Source of the DNA: an uncultured Algibacter sp.
Lineage (GTDB): Bacteria > Bacteroidota > Bacteroidia > Flavobacteriales > Flavobacteriaceae
Direction: 5' to 3'
DNA length: 64,000 nt
NCBI GenBank assembly: GCA_947502405.1
Contig: CANMZT010000014.1
Span: forward strand, 7,309 to 71,308
Position 1 is the first letter of the stretch, and each line of letters starts with the position of its first letter. A model generated the notes under the pieces. That model searched no databases. It was not told the origin of the DNA and saw only the letters and a program-made list of their open reading frames with translations. Positions 10,018 through 59,917 of this stretch are shown one piece after another. A program made the position numbers and the translations under genes.

Positions 10018-12201
10018 TTAAAACTTGAGTGTAGCTCCTACTAAAAAGTTAGTAGTGGCTTGTGGATAATATCCAGCAAAATAGCCTGTAGTAGTTCCCG
10101 TAGGGCTTGTATTATCATCAAAATCAAACGACCCAAAGTAACCGTTAGACACATATTTCTTATTAAAAATATTGTTTACCAATCCAGATAACACAATAGA
10201 CTTAAACAGTTTATTTGGCTTAATTTCGTAATTAATATTGAAATCGTTAACAAAATAACTTTCTAATAAAGATTCTTCATTATCAGTGTTACCCATATAT
10301 TGCTCACCCACATATTTACTTAATAATGATAGTTGCAATCGTTCCGCAGGGAAAAAATTAAGTGCATTACCGATTACTAAATCTGGAGAAAATGAAATAT
10401 TAGTATCTCCTAAGTTAACAACCTCACCATTTATTGAAGATGAAAAGTCTTTATTTTTATTACTACTTAAAGCAATATTTGTTGATGTACTAAAGTATTT
10501 ACTAAATTGAATGTTAGCATCAACTTCTAAACCTAGTCTATAACTTTTACCACTTGTAGCTCTTAATGGACTTCCCACATCATCTAACTCGCCTGTTAAC
10601 ACCAATTGATTTTGATAAAACATATAATAGATATTGGTATTAATACTGGCCTTTTCACTATTGTAACGCCATCCTAACTCAATATCATTTAAAGTTTCAT
10701 TTTCAGTTACACCGCCTTCAAAATCATCACGATTAGGTTCCCTATTAGCTCTTGCATAAGATGCATAAAAACTATTAAAATCGCAATGCTTGTATGTTAA
10801 ACCGACTTTTGGGTTGAAAAAACTAAAATCAGCATCCGTTACAAACTCATCTCTATCCGAGTTCAACCCATTCGTCTTATAACTCACAAAACGACCTTGT
10901 AAATCAATAAAACCTGTGATTTTTTCTGCTAATTTGAAAGTGGCTTTTGAAAATACACTAAAATCATTTTTTGTAGCATCTCCATCGTAGTAACGGTCTC
11001 TGATTTCAGTATTAGCAGTCAAGTCACTTCCCCAAATAACCTCTCCAAAATGGTCTCCCGTATAAGAACTCCATGAAATTCCAGAAATAATTTCCAACGC
11101 ATTTTCTTTATAAGTTACATTTGCATTTAAGACATAAAAATCATTATCTAACCACCTACGAACAATAACATCCGAATTATATTCAATCAAATTATTAAAA
11201 TCCTCTGCTGATTCTTCTGGCTTGTATTGCTCAAAATACCCTTTACCTTTTGTGTAGTTTAATCCTAAGTTGGTAGACCAATTATTATCAAAACGCTCGT
11301 TCCAATGTAATTGATAGTGGTCTTGCCAATAATTATCGGTTTCATTTTCATAAGTGTACGGGTTTTGACGACGATCCTCTTTTAGTTGTTCTGCCGTTAA
11401 ACCAAACCAAGATTGATAGGTTTGTTCTGTATTACCAAAAGTTAAAGCTTTAATTAAGGTGTTATCATCTTTATAAACACCTTGTATGAAATACGACTTT
11501 AAATCTGTAAACGCTCTATCTACATAGCCATCAGAATAAATATTAGAGAAACGACCAGAGATTTCGAAATGATCATTTAATAATCCTGTACTAACTTTTA
11601 CAGTATGTTTACGAGTGTTAAAACTACCAAAACTATTAGCAATTTCTGCTGAAGCTTCCTTAGAAAATGCATCTGTTAATAAATTGATACTAGCACCAAA
11701 AGCACCTGAACCATTTGTAGATGTACCAACACCACGCTGTAATTGTAAACTTTCAGTTGACGAGGCAAAATCCCCCAAATTCACCCAAAATGTACCTTGA
11801 CTTTCTGGATCGTTATAAGGTATACCGTTTATGGTAACATTTACTCGTGTTGCATCTGTACCACGAACTCTAATACCAGTGTAACCTACACCTGCACCAG
11901 CATCACTAGTAGTTACAACAGAAGGTAAGAAGTTTAACAAAACAGGAATATCCTGTCCTAAATTACGTTTTGCAAGTTCCTCTTTTGAAACGTTTGAATG
12001 CGTAATTGGAGAATCTGCATCCACTCTAACTGCATTTACTAAAACTTCATCTAGTTTTTCAGTTTTAGTTGAATCTTGTACTTTTTGATTTTGCTGTGCA
12101 TTAATTCCAATTGTAACAAGCAGAATTAAAGCAGCTACAAACTTTTTTTGATGAGATTCCTGCCTTCGCAGGAATGACAAATTTTTGAATAAATTTTTCA
12201 T
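10018..12201 (-). CDS. TonB-dependent receptor, probably for thiamine
   Basis: Signal peptide, plug motif (RVRG.D..R.NVTING.PYND), C-terminal GATLKF; TPP riboswitch upstream. Confidence 0.9.
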   Translation of the reverse strand: MKNLFKNLSFLRRQESHQKKFVAALILLVTIGINAQQNQKVQDSTKTEKLDEVLVNAVRVDADSPITHSNVSKEELAKRNLGQDIPVLLNFLPSVVTTSDAGAGVGYTGIRVRGTDATRVNVTINGIPYNDPESQGTFWVNLGDFASSTESLQLQRGVGTSTNGSGAFGASINLLTDAFSKEASAEIANSFGSFNTRKHTVKVSTGLLNDHFEISGRFSNIYSDGYVDRAFTDLKSYFIQGVYKDDNTLIKALTFGNTEQTYQSWFGLTAEQLKEDRRQNPYTYENETDNYWQDHYQLHWNERFDNNWSTNLGLNYTKGKGYFEQYKPEESAEDFNNLIEYNSDVIVRRWLDNDFYVLNANVTYKENALEIISGISWSSYTGDHFGEVIWGSDLTANTEIRDRYYDGDATKNDFSVFSKATFKLAEKITGFIDLQGRFVSYKTNGLNSDRDEFVTDADFSFFNPKVGLTYKHCDFNSFYASYARANREPNRDDFEGGVTENETLNDIELGWRYNSEKASINTNIYYMFYQNQLVLTGELDDVGSPLRATSGKSYRLGLEVDANIQFSKYFSTSTNIALSSNKNKDFSSSINGEVVNLGDTNISFSPDLVIGNALNFFPAERLQLSLLSKYVGEQYMGNTDNEESLLESYFVNDFNINYEIKPNKLFKSIVLSGLVNNIFNKKYVSNGYFGSFDFDDNTSPTGTTTGYFAGYYPQATTNFLVGATLKF
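12153..12179 (-). repeat. TGTC-tagged REP-like palindrome inside the receptor CDS
   Basis: TGTCATTCCTGCGAAGGCAGGAATCTC, read in frame as LSFLRRQES. Confidence 0.85.
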
Positions 12202-12340
12202 GTCGATTATGAATTTATAATCGAATAAAAAGAGGTAATTATTCTTTGTTATTAATAATTAAGTTTTGAACGTTAGAAATATTTAGTTAAAATTTAGCTT
12301 AGTTATTAGTATCAAATAAGATGAACTAATCGCAATCACT

Positions 12341-12362
12341 AAAAATGTCTACTAGACATTTT
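12341..12362 (-). terminator. Candidate terminator in the TPP riboswitch expression platform
   Basis: AAAATGTC-TAGTA-GACATTTTT on the minus strand, just downstream of the aptamer. Confidence 0.4.
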
Positions 12363-12371
12363 CTAAACGTT

Positions 12372-12442
12372 CGCTTTCCTAAACAGCATTACCTGTTCTA
12401 GGTTCAATGGGTATGATCTCAGCCGATAATAGGCACCCCTTT
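12372..12442 (-). promoter_or_regulatory. TPP (THI-box) riboswitch aptamer
   Basis: Minus strand GGGGTGCC..GGCTGAGATCATACCCATTGAACCTAGAACAGGTAATGCTGTTTAGGAAAG contains the TPP hallmarks CTGAGA, ATACCC, GAACCT and TAATGC. Confidence 0.93.
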
Positions 12443-12455
12443 TTTGAGAACGGTG

Positions 12456-12463
12456 CAAATGTA
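12456..12463 (-). promoter_or_regulatory. -7 promoter box (TACATTTG) for the riboswitch-receptor transcript
   Basis: Consensus match just upstream of the aptamer. Confidence 0.75.
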
Positions 12464-12503
12464 ATAACGAATTTTGGATTATAAATTAAAAATAACCTTT
12501 TTT

Positions 12504-12911
12504 TTAATCCAAATTAGGCTTTTTTCTATTAGCCTTCTTTTCAGACAGTTTGCGTTTACTATTTAGTCGTTTTTTAACTACTGCTTTTGGAACTTTAGTT
12601 GGTTTACGCTTTTTGGGAACTTTCAAAGCTTCTTTAATCAAACCCAAAAACCTCTTAATAACTAGGTCTTTATTTTTGTGCTGACTTCTACTTTCATCAC
12701 ACTGTAAAATCAATACTCCTTCTTTTGTTAATCGATTTTGAAGTTTATCTAAAAGACGTTCCTTTTGTTCAACATTAAGTATAAGCGACTCTGATATATT
12801 AAATGACAATTCTACTTTTGAAGAGACCTTATTAACATGCTGCCCTCCACTTCCGGAGCTTCTAACAGCTTTAAAAGTTAACTCTTGTAATATGGCTTCT
12901 TCATCAAACAT
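12504..12911 (-). CDS. arfB: Alternative ribosome rescue peptidyl-tRNA hydrolase ArfB
   Basis: RSSGSGGQHVNKV (GGQ), RSQHKNK, basic tail. Confidence 0.95.
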   Translation of the reverse strand: MFDEEAILQELTFKAVRSSGSGGQHVNKVSSKVELSFNISESLILNVEQKERLLDKLQNRLTKEGVLILQCDESRSQHKNKDLVIKRFLGLIKEALKVPKKRKPTKVPKAVVKKRLNSKRKLSEKKANRKKPNLD

Positions 12912-14461
12912 TAAGATACTTGATGCACAGGTTTCAATAAGTCGTTTACTGTTTTTACAGGATTAAAAGTTTCCAAGGGTACTTCTACAAAAATAGAATT
13001 CCAGTATGCCATACTACCGTTCCACAATCCAGGAAGCTCAAGAGCTTGAATATCTACTCCATTTTGTGTTTTAGTGGTTATAAAAGCGGCTTCTGGGTCA
13101 ACAAACTTTGTTAAATCAAATTTTTCTCCTTTATAATTTTTTACGCCACAAACTAAATCTGTAGGATTAAAATGTGTGGCCTTATATACTATACCTTGCT
13201 GATTCTTTTTACCAAAATTAATTTGAGCAAATTCAACTATTTGTAATGATATTTTACCCTCATCATCTTTTACCCAAAATGGACCTCCACCAGGTTCTCC
13301 TTGGTTTTTTACCATACCACAAACTCGAATAGGTCTATCAAATTTTTCTTTTAAATAACTTATTTTTTCCTCAGAGCAAAAGGCTTCAAAATCTGCCACA
13401 ACTGGCACATTTAATCTATAACGTAAAAACAAAGCCATCACTTTAAAATCAGCATCATCTAAATAACCTTCATCGAGCTTTTTCAAATAAGTAAAAACTT
13501 TCTCTTGAGCTTCTAAAAGAACACCAGCCAATAATTTCTTATAGTTTGAAACTTCAATATTTTTATTTGCAACAACTATATTGTCTATATTTTTAATAAA
13601 AATTAAGTCGTTATCTAAATCGTTTAAATTCTCTAGTAGCGCACCATGGCCAGCTGGTCTGAATAAAATTGAACCATCTTCATTTCTAAACACCTTATCA
13701 TCAAGAGTTAAAGCAACTGTTTCGGTTGCTTCTTTTTGAAAAGAATAAGACACATTGAATTTTGTATTTGTTTGGTCTTCTATCGGCTCTACAACAGCAC
13801 TAAACTCTTTTTTAAAATAGAGATGATGTTTTTCTGAAACTGTGAAATGTAGATTTGATTTACCATTGGAAGATGCATACAAGGTAGATTCAAATAAATG
13901 CTCTTCAAAGGCTGTTTTTACTTGCGCTCCGTACTTATGAAAAGGCAATAAACCTTTTGGTAAAAAGCTATAGTTTAGCCCATCAGCATCTAGCATGGTT
14001 TTTACAAATAACATTTGCTTTTCTTCGTTAGTTAAAGCATCATAATTTGGTGTTCCTTGACGAATCACTGATTGCACTTCATTATAAAATGGAAACTGTT
14101 CTAATTTTTCAAAAAAGGTTTCAATTAGAGCTTCATTTTTTCGCTCTGCATATTTTTTAACATTCTCTTTTGAGGGATTAAAATGTTGTAAAAACTGAAA
14201 CAAAAACTTAAACATACGTGTTGCTGCTCCTGAAGCAGGAACAAACTTCACGATTGATAAATTATCCTTTTTATTGTCATAAAGATTTATCAACTCTTGA
14301 GTTTCACCTTTATCATAGCTTTCTATACCTTTTCCTATGGTAGCAGCTGCCACAAGATCAGAAAATGACATGCCGTTTTTTAATCTGGACACTTGTGCGT
14401 TAACCTGATCTGGAGTTATTCCTTTACTTTTTATTTGCTTAATATCTTTCTCTGTAAACAT
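12911..14461 (-). CDS. DUF4301 family protein (nucleotidyltransferase-like)
   Basis: KFVPASGAATRMFK, RPAGHGAL, KNIDN, GEPGGGPFW, THFNP.DLVC, LELPGLWNGSM, FNPVKTVNDLL. Confidence 0.85.
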   Translation of the reverse strand: MFTEKDIKQIKSKGITPDQVNAQVSRLKNGMSFSDLVAAATIGKGIESYDKGETQELINLYDNKKDNLSIVKFVPASGAATRMFKFLFQFLQHFNPSKENVKKYAERKNEALIETFFEKLEQFPFYNEVQSVIRQGTPNYDALTNEEKQMLFVKTMLDADGLNYSFLPKGLLPFHKYGAQVKTAFEEHLFESTLYASSNGKSNLHFTVSEKHHLYFKKEFSAVVEPIEDQTNTKFNVSYSFQKEATETVALTLDDKVFRNEDGSILFRPAGHGALLENLNDLDNDLIFIKNIDNIVVANKNIEVSNYKKLLAGVLLEAQEKVFTYLKKLDEGYLDDADFKVMALFLRYRLNVPVVADFEAFCSEEKISYLKEKFDRPIRVCGMVKNQGEPGGGPFWVKDDEGKISLQIVEFAQINFGKKNQQGIVYKATHFNPTDLVCGVKNYKGEKFDLTKFVDPEAAFITTKTQNGVDIQALELPGLWNGSMAYWNSIFVEVPLETFNPVKTVNDLLKPVHQVS

Positions 14462-14462
14462 C

Positions 14463-15032
14463 TTATTCTTTGGGGTTTAATAATTTGTCAATATGTTTTA
14501 CTGCTGTTTCTAAACGCGTTTTCTTATCACCTTTTAAAAGCACAAAAGGTTTTTTATATTTTAATAATGCTTCTTGGAAAGCATCAAACATTTCTTTTCT
14601 ATGCTCAGGTTTATCTCTTAAATCATCTGCTTCCCAAGGCGTATCAATATAGGTTAAAAAATACAAATCGTAAGAATTCTCTAAAGCATGCTTCTCTAGT
14701 GTTGGGTCGCAACTTCCTAAGTAATAAGCTTCAGAATAAACCTTGGTTTCTAACAAATCCGTATCACAAATCAGCACTGAATCGGTTTTTTGAGCCAATT
14801 CATTTTCCAATTTCATTTGTCCTTCTGCTATAGGTAATAAATCTTCTGGCTCACAGGTTTTTCGCTCATTATTCCATTTGTTTTGAAGATATTCACGAGC
14901 ATATTCTGGTACCCAAACAGAGTTATAATACCTAGCCAATTGTCTTGACAAAGTAGTTTTTCCTGTAGATTCGGGACCAAACAAAACCACTTTTATGCAG
15001 TTTGCAGGTTGTTGTTTATATTTTTCTTCCAT
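14463..15032 (-). CDS. Stand-alone NadR-type P-loop kinase (AAA_28)
   Basis: GPESTGKTTL Walker A, VPEYAREYL, CDTD, PWEADDLRD. Confidence 0.88.
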   Translation of the reverse strand: MEEKYKQQPANCIKVVLFGPESTGKTTLSRQLARYYNSVWVPEYAREYLQNKWNNERKTCEPEDLLPIAEGQMKLENELAQKTDSVLICDTDLLETKVYSEAYYLGSCDPTLEKHALENSYDLYFLTYIDTPWEADDLRDKPEHRKEMFDAFQEALLKYKKPFVLLKGDKKTRLETAVKHIDKLLNPKE

Positions 15033-15625
15033 GCTATGTAGCCAAAAATGGCAATAAAAGTGAATCCTAAATATTGTAAACTCGTAAACGTAAAACCTTT
15101 ATAAAAGTATAACGGCACGGAAATAATGTCTCCAATAATCCAAAAAATCCAATTTTCGAGTTTACGTCTTGCCATAAGCCACATACCAACAAAAAATATT
15201 GCTGTAGTTATGGTATCTATATAGGCTACCCAACTCGTCCATTTATCAAAACTTTGGTAAACTAAATAAACAAATAAGAGTGTTGCTAAAAATATAGCTA
15301 TACTTATCTTTTTTTCGTTGAATGTTGTTTTGGATATTGGGGTAACATGCTCATCATCAATTTTCTTCGTCCAAATGTACCAACCATAAACACTCATCAC
15401 AAAGTAGTATGCGTTTATCATCATATCTCCCAACAACTCCCACTTAAGCAGTAAATACACAAAAATAACGGTACTTATCATACCCGTTGGAAACACAAAA
15501 ACATTGTTCTGCTTAGAGAACCAAACCGATAAAAATCCAAAAAAAACAGCAACTATTTCTAAAACAATATCAATCGTTTCATATTCTGAATATTGCCCAA
15601 AGAAAAACTCAAAAATGAGGTTCAT
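14993..15625 (-). CDS. pnuC: PnuC/PnuT family vitamin transporter (nicotinamide riboside or thiamine)
   Basis: Seven-TM pattern; FPTG, YGWYIW, D..TT, WLMARRKLENWIFWI..D. Confidence 0.92.
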   Translation of the reverse strand: MNLIFEFFFGQYSEYETIDIVLEIVAVFFGFLSVWFSKQNNVFVFPTGMISTVIFVYLLLKWELLGDMMINAYYFVMSVYGWYIWTKKIDDEHVTPISKTTFNEKKISIAIFLATLLFVYLVYQSFDKWTSWVAYIDTITTAIFFVGMWLMARRKLENWIFWIIGDIISVPLYFYKGFTFTSLQYLGFTFIAIFGYIAWKKNINNNLQTA

Positions 15626-15869
15626 AATCGTATCTGTCTGATTTTACAATTTTCATGTAGAGTAAACCGCGTTCAATAAGCTCGAAAGCTTCTTTTATTT
15701 CAGATGTTAATACTTGCATAACCTCATCATAATCACCATAAACTTGTGTGCTTAATGGGTTTTCAAGCACTTTTAATTTAGATGCTCTTAACTTTTTAAT
15801 GAAATGAATAATAGCTGGTTCAAAATCATCTTGCAATGGTGTTAGTGTTAATTCTACTGATATTTTCAT
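15609..15869 (-). CDS. Thiamine-binding protein family (YkoF/MTH1187-like)
   Basis: SVELTLTPL...NPLSTQVYGDYDEVM ferredoxin-like pattern. Confidence 0.75.
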   Translation of the reverse strand: MKISVELTLTPLQDDFEPAIIHFIKKLRASKLKVLENPLSTQVYGDYDEVMQVLTSEIKEAFELIERGLLYMKIVKSDRYDYEPHF

Positions 15870-15882
15870 TAATTTATCTTTT

Positions 15883-15906
15883 TATCATTTCCACGAAGGT
15901 GGGAAG
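15883..15906 (+). repeat. Degenerate TGTC-tagged REP-like palindrome
   Basis: TATCATTTCCACGAAGGTGGGAAG. Confidence 0.55.
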
Positions 15907-15952: not shown

Positions 15953-16678
15953 TTACTTTAGTAATTCATCAAAAAACGATTCATCTTCTTCAAAGGCGGT
16001 ACCTATAACTACAATATCTGCTCCTGCTTCAAAAGCATTTTCAATCTGCAATTTAGTCCTTAAACCACCTCCTATAATTAACGGAATCTGTAACTCATTT
16101 TTTACAGCTTTAATAATTTCTTTAGTTAAACCGTATTTTGCACCGCTTCCTGCTTCCAAATATATTAGCTTCATACCTAAAAGCTGTCCTGCTTTGGCAG
16201 TATCTAATATGTGTTGGACATTATTTCTTGATATAGGTTTTGTTTCAGTAACTTGTTCTACTGCTGAAATTTTACCACTTTCAATTAAAATATATCCTGT
16301 TGGGATTACCTCTAAAGACGAATCCTTTAACTTGGAAACTGCTCTTACATGCTTACCAATTAAATACTCAGGATTTCTACCAGAAAGCAAAGACAAAAAT
16401 AACAATCCATCTGCCTTATTCGTAATTTGAGTAACATCTCCAGGAAATAAAATTACTGGTAACTTAGTATGCTTTTTAATCTCAGAAACCAAATCTTCTG
16501 TTAAACCTTCATTCACAGAGCTCCCGCCAACAAATATATGTGTTGCGATAGATTTGTTTACTTTATTAATAAAATACAATGCTTTATCAACAGAAAACTT
16601 ATCGGGGTCAATTAAAATGGCAAGTAATTTTTCGCCTTTACTGATACTATCTTGTATGTTATTATAAATAGCATCCAT
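15953..16678 (-). CDS. Geranylgeranylglyceryl/heptaprenylglyceryl phosphate synthase (PcrB/GGGPS family)
   Basis: LIDPDK, FVGGS, LFPG, LSGRNPEYLIG, YLEAGSGA, GGGLR; ATG 16678 overlaps the upstream stop (TAATG). Confidence 0.92.
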   Translation of the reverse strand: MDAIYNNIQDSISKGEKLLAILIDPDKFSVDKALYFINKVNKSIATHIFVGGSSVNEGLTEDLVSEIKKHTKLPVILFPGDVTQITNKADGLLFLSLLSGRNPEYLIGKHVRAVSKLKDSSLEVIPTGYILIESGKISAVEQVTETKPISRNNVQHILDTAKAGQLLGMKLIYLEAGSGAKYGLTKEIIKAVKNELQIPLIIGGGLRTKLQIENAFEAGADIVVIGTAFEEDESFFDELLK

Positions 16679-17304
16679 TAGGCTATGGCATAAGCACATG
16701 TAAATCCTTCAAACTCTAAAAAATGAATACTATAACGGTATTTTTTACCTTCATAATCAATCCATGCAATAGTATCATTATCAATAATTGAAAATGGAAT
16801 TACTAAACAGTGCTGTTTAAAACTCAATCCTGGTGTAGCAAAAAGTTTATATAATGATTCTTTTACACACCAAATAGTTGTTAGTTTTTTAACATAGTCA
16901 GAATCCCCTACCTCTAAGTAATCAAACTCATAATCAATAAACTTATGTGCTATCACAGAAATTTTTTCACGCTGCTTTTCTATATCTATACCAACTACTA
17001 AATCACTAACAATAACTGCCGAAAAATTAAATGAATGCGTAATAGAAATTTGCTTGCCATCTTTTAAATGGGGTTTACCGTTTTCATCATAAAACAAATC
17101 AGAATCAGTATACCCAAACTCGTGCAATAAATGACGAACACTTAAAAAACCACGCTGATGTAATTCACTTTTCATGCCCAAAACCCGATTTAAAGCAATA
17201 GGTTTTAAATTAACCTTTGCCATTAAATCCTCGTAAGATTCTGTAATCTTCCAAATTTTAACAGTAGTTTGTGAATTTGGTGTAATGGTTTTATAAAGTG
17301 GCAT
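16678..17304 (-). CDS. 4'-phosphopantetheinyl transferase family protein
   Basis: GKP.L....ISITHS, VGIDIE, WCVKESLYK. Confidence 0.9.
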   Translation of the reverse strand: MPLYKTITPNSQTTVKIWKITESYEDLMAKVNLKPIALNRVLGMKSELHQRGFLSVRHLLHEFGYTDSDLFYDENGKPHLKDGKQISITHSFNFSAVIVSDLVVGIDIEKQREKISVIAHKFIDYEFDYLEVGDSDYVKKLTTIWCVKESLYKLFATPGLSFKQHCLVIPFSIIDNDTIAWIDYEGKKYRYSIHFLEFEGFTCAYAIA

Positions 17305-30328: not shown

Positions 30329-30411
30329 GGGCGTTACCCACAAGGGGTCGGGCTTTCCGTTATATCTTTTTCTCGTGCCTCAAAAAAGGATGCCACTTCA
30401 ATCCCTAACGC
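30329..30411 (-). repeat. Structured repeat, copy C (Flavo-1-like)
   Basis: Minus strand GCGTTAGGGATTGAAGTGGCATCCTTTTTTGAGGCACGAGAAAAAGATATAACGGAAAGCCCGACCCCTTGTGGGTAACGCCC. Confidence 0.8.
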
Positions 30412-30496
30412 GGGCTCATCAGCTAGCCATTTGACTAAACAAAACAATATCATTTTTTTACAAACGTTAAGTCTATAAGAATTAAAACAATTCCTA

Positions 30497-58613: not shown

Positions 58614-58874
58614 ATGAAAAGCATTCATTGTATGGTGTTTGGGCACAATTTTAAAGTTACCAGACAAGTTACTTATCATGTTCAAGAATACACTTGTAAA
58701 AACTGTAAAAAAGAACTCACTACAAACAGTAACGGAAACTTAATAGAACTTACACCAAAATTTAAAGAGATTAATGACGTTCTTGAGCGAATTCATCACA
58801 AACGTTTAGTAAGAATGAACAAGAGAAAAAAGCTCAGCAGAACTCAACCAAAACCTAAGTTAATGATTGCTTAG
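58614..58874 (+). CDS. Small zinc-finger-like protein (DUF1660-like), paralogue 2
   Basis: CMVFGH...YTCKNC; long blocks identical to paralogue 1. Confidence 0.7.
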   Translation: MKSIHCMVFGHNFKVTRQVTYHVQEYTCKNCKKELTTNSNGNLIELTPKFKEINDVLERIHHKRLVRMNKRKKLSRTQPKPKLMIA

Positions 58875-59917
58875 TCATTAAAATTCTTCCAACCTTGAGC
58901 TTTGATGGGTATTCTCGTATCTGCTCTAGTCACAAGATGTAATCCTTCTTTTTCTTCCTTTATATAACCAATAACTGAAAGGTTAGGATTTGCTTTTATT
59001 TTTGGAAAATCATCTTGAGAAACTGTAAATAAAAGTTCGTAATCTTCACCTCCATTTAAAGCCACTGTAGTACTATCAATTTTAAATTCTTCACAGGTAG
59101 AAATAACTTGTGGGTCTAATGGAATTTTATTTTCGTACAAATCACAACCTACCTTACTCTGCTTACATAGATGTATTATTTCTGAAGATAAGCCATCACT
59201 AACATCAATCATGGACGTGGGTTTAACTTCTAAATCTGTTAATAATTTAACAATATCCTTTCTCGCTTCAGGTTTAAGCTGTCTTTCAACAATATAAGTA
59301 TAAGGTTCTAAATCTGGTTGACTATTAGGATTTACTTTATAAACCTCTTTTTCACGCTCTAAAACTTGCAAACCCATGTAAGCCGCTCCTAAATCTCCAG
59401 ATACTACTAATAAATCATTAGGTTTTGCACCACTTCTATATACTTCATTTTCAGGTTTCACCTCTCCAATAGCAGTGACAGAAATAAGCAATCCTTTATT
59501 TGAAGATGTGGTATCGCCTCCAACCACATCAATAGCATAAATACTTGCAGCCGTTTCAATTCCAGCATATAAATCTTCTAAAGCTTCCAAAGGAAATCTA
59601 TTAGATACTGCAATTGAAACTGTTACCTGTGTTGCTTTAGCATTCATCGCATAAACATCAGATAAATTTACAACTATCGCTTTATAGCCCAAATGCTTTA
59701 AAGGCATATAACTTAAATCAAAATGCACACCTTCAACTAATAAATCAGTAGACACAACAATGCGTTTATCTTCAAAATTTAAAACTGCAGCGTCATCACC
59801 AATCCCTTTAATTGTTGATTTTTGCTTTATTTCAAAATTTTTTGTCAAATGTTCTATTAATCCAAATTCACCTAAATCACTTAACTGTGTACTTTGCTGG
59901 TTTTTATCTTCTATCAT
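58871..59917 (-). CDS. thiL: Thiamine-monophosphate kinase
   Basis: GEFGLI, GIGDDAAV, DLLVEGVHF, NLSDVYAM, IDVSDGL, GGEDYELLFT. Confidence 0.97.
   Translation of the reverse strand: MIEDKNQQSTQLSDLGEFGLIEHLTKNFEIKQKSTIKGIGDDAAVLNFEDKRIVVSTDLLVEGVHFDLSYMPLKHLGYKAIVVNLSDVYAMNAKATQVTVSIAVSNRFPLEALEDLYAGIETAASIYAIDVVGGDTTSSNKGLLISVTAIGEVKPENEVYRSGAKPNDLLVVSGDLGAAYMGLQVLEREKEVYKVNPNSQPDLEPYTYIVERQLKPEARKDIVKLLTDLEVKPTSMIDVSDGLSSEIIHLCKQSKVGCDLYENKIPLDPQVISTCEEFKIDSTTVALNGGEDYELLFTVSQDDFPKIKANPNLSVIGYIKEEKEGLHLVTRADTRIPIKAQGWKNFND

Follow-up and report, generated by a model that had tools for sequence, protein, structure and literature searches.

A PnuC-family channel and a stand-alone NadR-type kinase in a predicted thiamine acquisition locus of Flavobacteriaceae

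In gut Bacteroidetes, TPP riboswitches govern OMthi-pnuT-tnr3 loci, for which genetic work has demonstrated the transport roles (PMC5613172). PnuT acts as a facilitator and binds neither TMP nor TPP, as would suit a substrate that is trapped once phosphorylated (PMC5749112). The PnuC family also serves nicotinamide riboside (NR) salvage together with NadR, as described in E. coli, H. influenzae, and L. lactis (PDB 4QTN, 1LW7, and 6GYE; PMC7221760).

Within the 64,000-nt stretch of DNA that was analyzed (the window), a tight chain of five genes on the minus strand precedes a TPP aptamer and the gene for a TonB-dependent receptor (Table 1). Down the chain, the ORF coordinates show the Thiamine_BP-family gene running with its stop 17 nt into the channel gene, and pnuC and the kinase gene overlapping by 40 nt; a gap of 1 nt separates the kinase gene from DUF4301, and DUF4301 and arfB overlap by 1 nt. 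A first-pass annotation had described a five-gene chain with these junctions, and the ORF positions, the strand, and the family matches all agree with it. ArfB, which carries a GGQ motif and a basic tail, is an alternative ribosome-rescue peptidyl-tRNA hydrolase and a passenger gene. Since it is packed into the chain as tightly as the rest, tight packing here is no proof of a common pathway. The unrelated gene PcrB is kept beside the chain almost as well as the chain genes themselves, so synteny here can persist without common function.

Table 1. Positions of the features in the window, with their family matches.
Feature	Position	Strand	Size, match, or remark
MTH1187/YkoF-like protein (Pfam Thiamine_BP)	15609..15869	-	86 aa; first in chain; PF01910, 31.2 bits, cut-off 24.9 (profile search)
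PnuC-family channel	14993..15625	-	210 aa; seven helices; NMN_transporter PF04973, 182 bits
NadR-kinase-like P-loop kinase, stand-alone	14463..15032	-	189 aa; AAA_28 PF13521, 149 bits
DUF4301	12911..14461	-	516 aa; PF14134, 705 bits
ArfB	12504..12911	-	135 aa; NF006718, 138 bits, cut-off 100
TACATTTG, Bacteroidota-type -7 box	12456..12463	-	A few bases upstream of the aptamer
TPP riboswitch aptamer, short-P3 variant	12354..12455	-	RF00059, 37 bits, E 1.6e-4
Terminator-like hairpin AAUGUCU-AGU-AGACAUU, then five U	12341..12360	-	Read from the sequence
TonB-dependent receptor	10018..12201	-	727 aa; plug and beta-barrel domains
ThiL, thiamine-monophosphate kinase	58871..59917	-	TIGR01379, 316 bits, cut-off 184

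The locus resembles OMthi-pnuT-tnr3 in combining a TPP riboswitch, a TonB-dependent receptor, and a PnuC-family facilitator whose gene is immediately followed by that of a cytoplasmic kinase, and it is predicted to work in the same way, by facilitated diffusion and subsequent metabolic trapping. It differs in that a Thiamine_BP-family gene heads the chain and that DUF4301 and ArfB sit between the kinase gene and the riboswitch. In addition, the kinase is a NadR-RNK-type P-loop kinase and not a thiamine pyrophosphokinase, so it would yield TMP, and ThiL would be required in addition. With PnuC-NadR salvage the locus shares a PnuC-family channel and a homologous P-loop kinase, and kinase-DUF4301 fusions, like NadR, join a kinase to a nucleotidyltransferase within a single polypeptide. 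However, the kinase lacks both the NMNAT (HxGH Rossmann) and the HTH domain, the adjoining nucleotidyltransferase has a UDP-sugar pyrophosphorylase fold and lies C-terminal to the kinase where that of NadR is N-terminal, the context is thiamine and not NAD, and Asp replaces Asn in the ligand motif.

The channel and the kinase are an obligate pair. The kinase gene directly followed pnuC in all 80 named Flavobacteriaceae loci, and pnuC lay directly upstream in 29 of 31 distant metagenome loci, with kinase identities down to 27%; the linkage noted in the first pass was thus seen in essentially every locus examined. The channel is the sole PnuC-family gene in its own genome and shares 23% identity with PnuC of E. 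coli. Its motif W159-x-x-W162-x-x-x-D166 ends in Asp, as in S. woodyi PnuT (PMC5749112), where PnuC of E. coli and of N. mucosa has Asn; the marker is imperfect, since Asn variants likewise occur beside TPP aptamers. We read the channel as a putative PnuT-type thiamine channel.

The kinase matched NadR models in their kinase part only, matched PDB NadR kinase domains at E values of 1e-16 to 1e-9, and shared 38 to 47% identity with NMNAT-fused NadR-type proteins. It is thus clearly homologous to true NR kinase domains, which counts against a thiamine reading. In the kinase tree, all 16 NMNAT-fused NadR-type kinases fell on one side of a single, weakly supported branch (SH-aLRT 79), with the kinase of the window and every TPP-linked kinase on the opposite side. 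The stand-alone enzyme is probably a thiamine kinase of a new type.

The TPP aptamer is real despite its low score. The match, at 12359-12450 on the minus strand, scores 37 bits where the Rfam gathering score is 54.3; the default scan therefore misses it, and it was seen in the E-value scan only. An aptamer lay at the equivalent place in 11 of 15 related loci, and one in a locus of another family scored 57.8 bits. Base pairing of the element was 98.3%, with compensatory changes in three pairs. With a model built in this analysis, it was found in 61 of the 80 named Flavobacteriaceae loci, always downstream of the pair and on the same strand, and the next gene encoded a TonB receptor in 60 of these and was thiC in one. 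Aptamer and receptor were also present in 9 of the 31 distant loci, often with the aptamer directly after the kinase gene and without DUF4301 or ArfB between. The own genome contained no other TPP match of weight. Unlike in OMthi-pnuT-tnr3, the riboswitch controls the receptor only (thiC in one locus) and was never upstream of pnuC in the loci examined.

Around the aptamer, the position of TACATTTG suggests a candidate promoter of the receptor transcript; motifs of this type were not more frequent than chance in the window. The terminator-like hairpin is a candidate expression platform of the riboswitch, and the minimum-free-energy fold pairs this stretch otherwise, with downstream sequence. 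The receptor is predicted to be a thiamine receptor, the counterpart of Bacteroides OMthi.

Further thiamine elements were found beside the pair. In one locus (L117), genes for ThiC, a TMP-TENI-family protein, and ThiD come after the aptamer in the place of the receptor; in another (L165), a ThiE/TenI-family gene lies immediately upstream of PnuC-kinase; in a third (L175), the order is receptor-PnuC-kinase. The MTH1187/YkoF-like gene was present in about 59 of the 80 related Flavobacteriaceae loci, usually overlapping the channel gene by 14 to 17 nt. Its product, for which PDB 2ibo is a weak match, would probably be a cytoplasmic binder of thiamine or of a thiamine moiety. The E-value scan of the region detected no RNA element related to NAD.

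The own genome is 99.98% complete. Profile searches of it found neither ThiC nor a true ThiG nor a thiamine pyrophosphokinase (TPK_catalytic, PF04263), and nothing for ThiE exceeded the cut-off; ThiL is kept. By the families tested, this marine flavobacterium thus seems incapable of B1 synthesis, and with this gene content a kinase would have to make TMP from thiamine that is imported. For the receptor, channel, and kinase, we infer that thiamine is the better-supported substrate than NR.

The AlphaFold model of DUF4301 (pLDDT 92, pTM 0.91) had UGPase, UAP, or USP structures as all of its top 47 PDB fold matches. Compared with UDPGP enzymes (PF01704; UGPase 2icx and 4r7p, UAP/AGX 8yp3 and 1jv1, USP 3oh1), the overall fold is alike (Foldseek probability 1.0, TM 0.45 to 0.51) and the motifs occur in matching order (Gly-rich NTP loop, GHG, NxDN, and the F-x-P-V-K lysine motif), whereas sequence similarity is at noise level (PF01704, 18 bits versus a cut-off of 22). 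The invariant motifs of DUF4301 are PASGAA-RMF, GHG, KNxDN, and FxPVK, and no PDB match to the family profile was found. UDPGP enzymes are eukaryote type, whereas DUF4301 was restricted to Bacteroidota in this sample, with none in a control E. coli genome, and in one family lies within, and is sometimes fused to, a vitamin-uptake operon. The modeled fold bears out the earlier assignment, and we predict with confidence that DUF4301 is a nucleotidyltransferase folded like the UDP-sugar pyrophosphorylases. We infer that it would most simply act on a phosphorylated sugar.

DUF4301 was found in 23 of 24 same-family genomes in the sample of relatives and, across about ten genera, directly followed PnuC and the kinase in nearly every such locus. 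Nevertheless, about 29 of the 80 Flavobacteriaceae loci lack it and retain PnuC, kinase, ArfB, and receptor, and some genomes of the family lack it entirely. In other families, neither PnuC nor the kinase lay within about 9 kb of DUF4301, where the contig allows, in any of 39 loci, and no recurrent neighbor of any kind was found in the 37 loci analyzed. A complete uptake-and-activation pathway had been proposed in the first pass; of this, receptor, channel, and kinase look like one uptake-and-trapping system, whereas DUF4301 as a necessary step is not supported. DUF4301 is probably an optional chain member, a non-required passenger. However, its repeated fusion to the kinase may argue against a mere passenger role: the spacing of the two genes is -4 to +5 nt in most loci, at least five independent fusion events occurred within the family, and none were found at the equally tight DUF4301-ArfB junction or at control junctions. 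In the nearest cluster representatives of the kinase, the domain is fused to NMNAT (16) or to DUF4301 (6).

This partner swap, the five fusions against zero at control junctions, the homology of the kinase to NadR kinase domains, and the intact nucleotidyl-transfer motif set of DUF4301 would all fit NR salvage with a new last enzyme. PnuC would import NR, the kinase would make NMN, and DUF4301 would adenylylate NMN to NAD, its UGPase fold replacing the NMNAT domain fused to the same kinase type in NadR, and the thiamine receptor would be a neighbor only. A stand-alone NMNAT would make sense in PnuC-less genomes too; DNA ligase releases NMN, which an NMNAT could recycle. We consider this reading unlikely, given that about a third of PnuC-kinase loci lack DUF4301, that it was never linked to the pair in the 39 loci outside Flavobacteriaceae, that all solved structures resembling it use UTP and a sugar-1-phosphate, that the specific context clues at PnuC-kinase are all thiamine and none NAD, and that the channel has Asp where two characterized NR transporters have Asn. 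It is very unlikely that DUF4301 acts on the kinase product in a thiamine module, joining TMP or TPP with an NTP into a thiamine nucleotide, similar to adenosine-thiamine-diphosphate or -triphosphate, that serves for storage or signaling. DUF4301 is widespread in Bacteroidota without thiamine or Pnu context, many thiamine loci dispense with it, and in this sample it was confined to Bacteroidota and absent from the E. coli control genome, whereas a synthesis activity for adenylated thiamines has reportedly been described in E. coli. This reading shares the thiamine context of the best explanation and agrees with the tight coupling and repeated fusion of kinase and DUF4301. Adenylated thiamine phosphates are said to occur in bacteria, from work by Bettendorff and Makarchikov, and we know of no identified gene for their synthesis.

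We also give little credence to synteny as the whole explanation, in which PnuC and the kinase perform ordinary NR uptake and phosphorylation, other enzymes convert NMN to NAD, the thiamine receptor is a neighbor, and DUF4301 acts in sugar-nucleotide metabolism, for instance as a UDP-glucose pyrophosphorylase supplying GT3 glycogen synthase. The family-level annotation is indeed PnuC plus RNK, the unrelated PcrB and ArfB are kept in the same block, DUF4301 has a UGPase fold, and in one locus of another family (L065) it directly follows a GT3 (UDP-glucose-type) glycogen synthase. That adjacency occurs in just 1 of 37 loci, however, and synteny does not account for PnuC-kinase beside differing thiamine elements across lineages (receptor, thiC-thiE-thiD, ThiE/TenI gene, Thiamine_BP). 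It also leaves a ThiL-bearing B1 auxotroph without an inner-membrane thiamine route or a thiamine kinase among the families tested.

Our preferred reading, with a probability of roughly 55%, is that this is the thiamine acquisition locus of Bacteroidota in its Flavobacteriaceae form, a route that runs from receptor through PnuT-type channel and new-type thiamine kinase to ThiL. DUF4301 and ArfB would be co-located, probably co-transcribed, non-required parts. At low TPP, the riboswitch would permit production of the TonB-dependent receptor, which would carry thiamine over the outer membrane. Thiamine would diffuse through the inner membrane by way of the PnuT-type facilitator. The P-loop kinase, whose translation is coupled, would convert it to TMP and hence trap it in the cell, and ThiL would convert TMP to TPP.

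On the minus strand of the window, ORF coordinates, Pfam and NCBIfam matches and an RNA aptamer agree on the layout described in the first-pass annotation: a chain of five genes, followed by a thiamine pyrophosphate (TPP) element and a TonB-dependent receptor. The chain encodes a protein of a thiamine-binding family (Thiamine_BP), a PnuC-family channel, a NadR-like P-loop kinase, a DUF4301 protein and ArfB. In that order, neighboring genes overlap by 17 and 40 nt at the first two junctions, are 1 nt apart at the third and overlap by 1 nt at the fourth, and a 302-nt spacer separates arfB from the receptor ORF. ArfB passes its curated cut-off and carries the SGSGGQ (GGQ) motif and a basic, Lys/Arg-rich C-terminal tail. 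The Thiamine_BP protein belongs to the MTH1187-YkoF family by its Pfam gathering score, with putative ligand binding, and matched none of the NCBIfam models in an NCBIfam search. In same-genus genomes (loci L005, L011, L012 and L015), this protein is 35 to 61% identical to that of the window in some and 86 to 96% in others, and the gene is absent altogether from several genomes. Because its identity varies so widely while that of the adjacent PnuC in the same genomes stays at about 88 to 91%, the comparison points to allele replacement or very rapid change in the Thiamine_BP gene. A PcrB-family gene and a 4'-phosphopantetheinyl transferase gene lie directly upstream of the chain.

Features of the chain and its surroundings (window positions)
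Feature	Positions	Strand	Remarks
Thiamine_BP gene	15869-15609	-	86 aa; PF01910 31.2 bits, cut-off 24.9
NMN_transporter/PnuC	15625-14993	-	210 aa; PF04973 182 bits
AAA_28 kinase	15032-14463	-	189 aa; NadR models (TIGR01526, PRK08099) matched partially, over kinase portion only
DUF4301	14461-12911	-	516 aa; 705 bits
ArfB	12911-12504	-	135 aa; NF006718 138 bits, cut-off 100
TPP aptamer	12359-12450	-	RF00059 37 bits
Hairpin plus five U	12360-12341		right after aptamer
Hairpin before receptor AUG	12195-12235
REP-like palindrome	~12153-12179		in frame within receptor gene
Stretch holding the palindrome	12108-12201		weak FtrB-like Rfam match (34 bits) caused by palindrome
TonB-dependent receptor	12201-10018	-	727 aa; Plug plus beta-barrel
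Hairpin in PcrB/Thiamine_BP spacer	~15888-15905		similar to receptor palindrome
PcrB-family gene and 4'-phosphopantetheinyl transferase	15953-17304	-
Flavo-1 RNA	30342-30420		RF01705 51.9 bits
ThiL	58871-59917		in window; 316 bits

A default Rfam scan of the window returned no TPP element. An E-value Rfam scan gave the RF00059 match listed in the table, which does not reach the gathering score of 54.3 and contains the conserved core (CUGAGA, ACCC and AACCU) together with the pairing stems. In 11 of 15 related loci the element recurs at the corresponding site (37 to 50 bits). Aptamers at this position pass the gathering score in L065, which belongs to a different family of the same order (57.8 bits), and in two further loci (L167 and L178); the best score among the orthologues is 67 bits. 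When a covariance model built from 12 copies was run on 80 named Flavobacteriaceae loci, it detected the aptamer in 61, always on the gene strand and after ArfB or DUF4301, with the receptor next in 60 of them. Pairing holds in 98.3% of cells across the 12 copies, compared with 33 to 60% in slid controls, and the P4/P5 stem shows compensatory changes in three pairs. Since orthologous positions, pairing and covariation agree, we regard the predicted riboswitch as real despite its subthreshold score. The whole genome contains no other TPP match of any weight.

The aptamer is followed at once by a hairpin and five U residues. A second hairpin, UCGAUUAU-AAAUUC-AUAAUCGA, ends two bases before the AUG of the receptor gene and may belong to a translational expression platform. 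Just before the aptamer stands a TACATTTG box; it was considered as a -7 promoter box and rejected, the motif being no more frequent in the window than expected by chance. Within the signal-peptide region of the receptor there is a REP-like palindrome, GTCATTCCTGCGAAGGCAGGAATCTC, and a similar hairpin lies in the spacer between the PcrB and Thiamine_BP genes. The only Rfam match above its gathering score in the window is a Flavo-1 RNA.

The 80 loci come from about 25 genera, among them Winogradskyella, Polaribacter, Tenacibaculum, Maribacter, Dokdonia, Formosa, Gramella and Lutibacter. They were fetched through a PnuC-alignment scan of genome contigs that reached Flavobacteriaceae only, all at an identity of at least 71%, with the PnuT and PnuC proteins of other phyla outside it. 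The kinase gene directly follows pnuC in all 80. ArfB is present in about 70, the Thiamine_BP gene in about 59 and DUF4301 in about 51; in Polaribacter, Tenacibaculum, Lutibacter and others, the order is PnuC-kinase-ArfB-aptamer-receptor without DUF4301. The conserved core thus consists of channel and kinase, usually with a riboswitch-controlled receptor, to which DUF4301, ArfB and the small binding protein are optional additions.

A search of metagenomes that used distant stand-alone kinases as seeds yielded 31 further loci, in 29 of which PnuC precedes the kinase. In nine, a TPP aptamer (40 to 67 bits) lies 3' of the kinase, with a TonB receptor after it wherever the contig is long enough. 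Of these nine, six have the aptamer immediately behind the kinase, two (L156 and L160) have DUF4301 in between and one (L183) has other sequence there. These TPP-linked loci include kinases 34 to 37% and PnuC proteins 26 to 30% identical to those of the window. One further distant locus has the order receptor-PnuC-kinase, and in another a ThiE/TenI-family gene directly precedes PnuC and the kinase. In Flavobacteriaceae bacterium R38 (L117:8823-12485), ThiC, a TMP-TENI-family gene and ThiD stand behind PnuC-kinase-DUF4301 and the aptamer, in the place of the receptor.

The genome, which is 99.98% complete, contains a single PnuC-family gene and has ThiL; in searches for other thiamine genes, ThiC, a true ThiG and thiamine pyrophosphokinase (PF04263) were not found, and nothing scored above the ThiE cut-off. 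On this gene content the cell would be unable to make thiamine monophosphate (TMP) while retaining the TMP kinase ThiL, and would need a thiamine kinase. The chain kinase is probably an unrecognised type of thiamine kinase. Its product would be TMP, with ThiL then completing the route, because it is a NadR-type P-loop kinase and not a pyrophosphokinase. A literature search found no paper describing a NadR-like thiamine kinase. Two cluster-representative proteins, P0332 and P0376, join this kinase domain to other partners, a DCC1-like thiol-disulfide oxidoreductase in one (316 aa) and a class-I methyltransferase in the other (602 aa).

Nicotinamide riboside (NR) is the alternative substrate of the channel and kinase. 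The kinase is an evident homologue of the NadR kinase domain (RNK), as in PnuC-NadR salvage, with PDB matches at E values of 1e-16 to 1e-9, and 16 of its 150 best matches among 1.84 billion representatives are NMNAT-kinase proteins of the NadR type (38 to 47% identity). Unlike PnuC-NadR systems, however, the locus has no NMNAT (HxGH, CTP_transf_like) domain and no NAD context; Pfam gave no CTP_transf_like match in the 189-aa kinase, the other chain genes or the flanking genes scanned. In a tree of 156 kinase domains, a single branch, with an SH-aLRT value of only 79%, divides all NadR-type kinases from a group that holds the window's kinase, the nine TPP-linked kinases and every DUF4301 fusion. 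The channel has the ligand motif WxxWxxxD, whose D166 is needed for thiamine binding in PnuT (PMC5749112); the Asp is present in nine of nine TPP-linked distant loci, and the PnuC proteins of E. coli and N. mucosa have Asn at this position. As a marker separating thiamine from NR, Asp versus Asn was set aside and is a weak hint only, since four Flavobacteriaceae loci with Asn carry the aptamer. A distant clade of PnuC-kinase pairs (L164, L168 to L171 and L173) has Asn in this motif, WxxWxxxN (ESWxWWIxTN), with no thiamine element within 3 kb; these loci may be genuine NR systems and would be useful as a contrast group.

Genomic context favors thiamine. An aptamer and receptor lie near the channel-kinase pair, also in distant loci, thiamine synthesis genes accompany it in R38 and in the locus with the ThiE/TenI-family gene, the first gene of the chain is of a thiamine-binding family, and the thiamine pathway of the genome has the gaps described. 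The layout is that of the experimentally supported OMthi-pnuT-tnr3 module of gut Bacteroidetes (PMC5613172), with which the locus shares the TPP riboswitch, a TonB-dependent receptor directly under it and a PnuC-family inner-membrane transporter; it differs in having an AAA_28 kinase of the NadR type after pnuC, where Tnr3/TPK stands. By analogy, the window locus would be a system of this kind with its kinase exchanged. Against thiamine, the riboswitch is never upstream of pnuC in the loci examined, and the unrelated PcrB keeps its place next to the chain almost as constantly, also in distant metagenome loci (L159, L165, L180 and L183). Conserved synteny here takes in genes without an obvious vitamin link, and synteny alone is therefore no proof of shared function. 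On balance, we favor thiamine over NR as the substrate of the channel-kinase pair by roughly two to one. The first-pass annotation had proposed a complete uptake-and-activation pathway for one or the other vitamin. Its uptake-and-trapping part stands, most likely with thiamine as substrate, given the repeated TPP and receptor context; the distribution of DUF4301 does not support this protein as the completing step, although its recurrent fusion to the kinase leaves that idea some probability.

An AlphaFold2 model of DUF4301, made from an alignment of 50 homologues (41 to 83% identity), reached a pLDDT of 92 and a pTM of 0.91. All of its top 47 PDB fold matches belong to the UDP-sugar pyrophosphorylases of eukaryotic type (UGPase, UAP/AGX and USP), with probability 1.0 and TM scores of 0.45 to 0.51; other sugar nucleotidyltransferases follow with much weaker scores. 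DUF4301 has the invariant motifs K-F-V-P-A-S-G-A-A-x-R-M-F, R-P-x-G-H-G-A-L, K-N-x-D-N and F-x-P-V-K-x-x-x-D-L, of which P75-A-S-G-A-A, G271-H-G, K290-N-x-D-N and F499-x-P-V-K503 are invariant both in 25 and in 50 diverse homologues. The catalytic motifs of the UDPGP type (NTP loop, GHG, NxDN and the PVK lysine) are therefore conserved, and K-N-x-D-N and F-x-P-V-K align with NIDN and PVK of human UGPase. DUF4301 thus resembles the UDPGP superfamily in catalytic-domain fold and motifs but not in sequence score: PF01704 gave 18 bits (cut-off, 22) over residues 406 to 510 only, which leaves it outside that family. Against solved structures, phmmer gave an E value of 0.27, and the family profile found nothing in the PDB. 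The link to UDP-sugar pyrophosphorylases is made by fold comparison, since sequence methods alone fail. Because both fold and invariant motifs match these enzymes, nucleotidyl transfer to a phosphate ester is almost certainly the reaction of the modeled protein. A literature search found no paper on its function and one that mentions DUF4301 in passing.

It is unlikely that DUF4301 acts on the kinase product, making NAD from nicotinamide mononucleotide (NMN) or a thiamine nucleotide from TMP or TPP. If it did, kinase and DUF4301 would form a two-step vitamin-activating enzyme analogous to NadR on either branch, and on the NAD branch the UDP-sugar-pyrophosphorylase fold would be a third unrelated solution to NMN adenylyl transfer. 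In favor of such a role, most of the 73 loci with both genes show a kinase-DUF4301 spacing of -4 to +5 nt, and five of the 73 have the two as a single ORF, representing five separate events in the DUF4301 tree. More fusions (37 to 68% kinase identity) occur in cluster representatives and in one NCBI protein, and control junctions are unfused (DUF4301-ArfB in 0 of 62 pairs, kinase-ArfB in 0 of 20), the DUF4301-ArfB junction being comparably tight. DUF4301 is, however, dispensable in many PnuC-kinase loci and stands alone elsewhere. In a sample of the window's relatives, 23 of 24 same-family genomes have it, almost always directly 3' of PnuC and the kinase. It is present in 63 of 401 sampled Bacteroidota genomes, and in 39 DUF4301 loci cut out from other families (flanks of up to 9 kb, contig permitting), neither PnuC nor a kinase was nearby. 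Among 139 flanking genes of 37 such loci, no family recurs, and context therefore cannot name the substrate. The fold is typical of chemistry on UTP and a sugar-1-phosphate, and in one of these 37 loci DUF4301 adjoins a UDP-glucose-type glycogen synthase: L065:5460-9052 has a GT3 (eukaryote-type) glycogen synthase, 44 nt, DUF4301, a TPP aptamer and a TonB receptor, and neither PnuC nor a kinase close by.

Vitamin B1 auxotrophy is ascribed to many abundant marine Flavobacteriaceae (e.g., PMC8552899). The locus bears on marine vitamin ecology and on annotation. DUF4301 is a large Bacteroidota family, for which the fold placement and the recurrent kinase fusion lead to a short list of substrates. 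For genomes which, like that of the window, lack thiamine pyrophosphokinase, the kinase is a candidate for the step that traps imported thiamine by phosphorylation. If it is a thiamine kinase, a widely distributed gene family, whose present label is NR kinase, "NAD metabolism" kinase or none at all, is misnamed, B1 salvage in these bacteria would run via TMP and ThiL, and this marker would have to be added to genome-based maps of oceanic B1 dependence.
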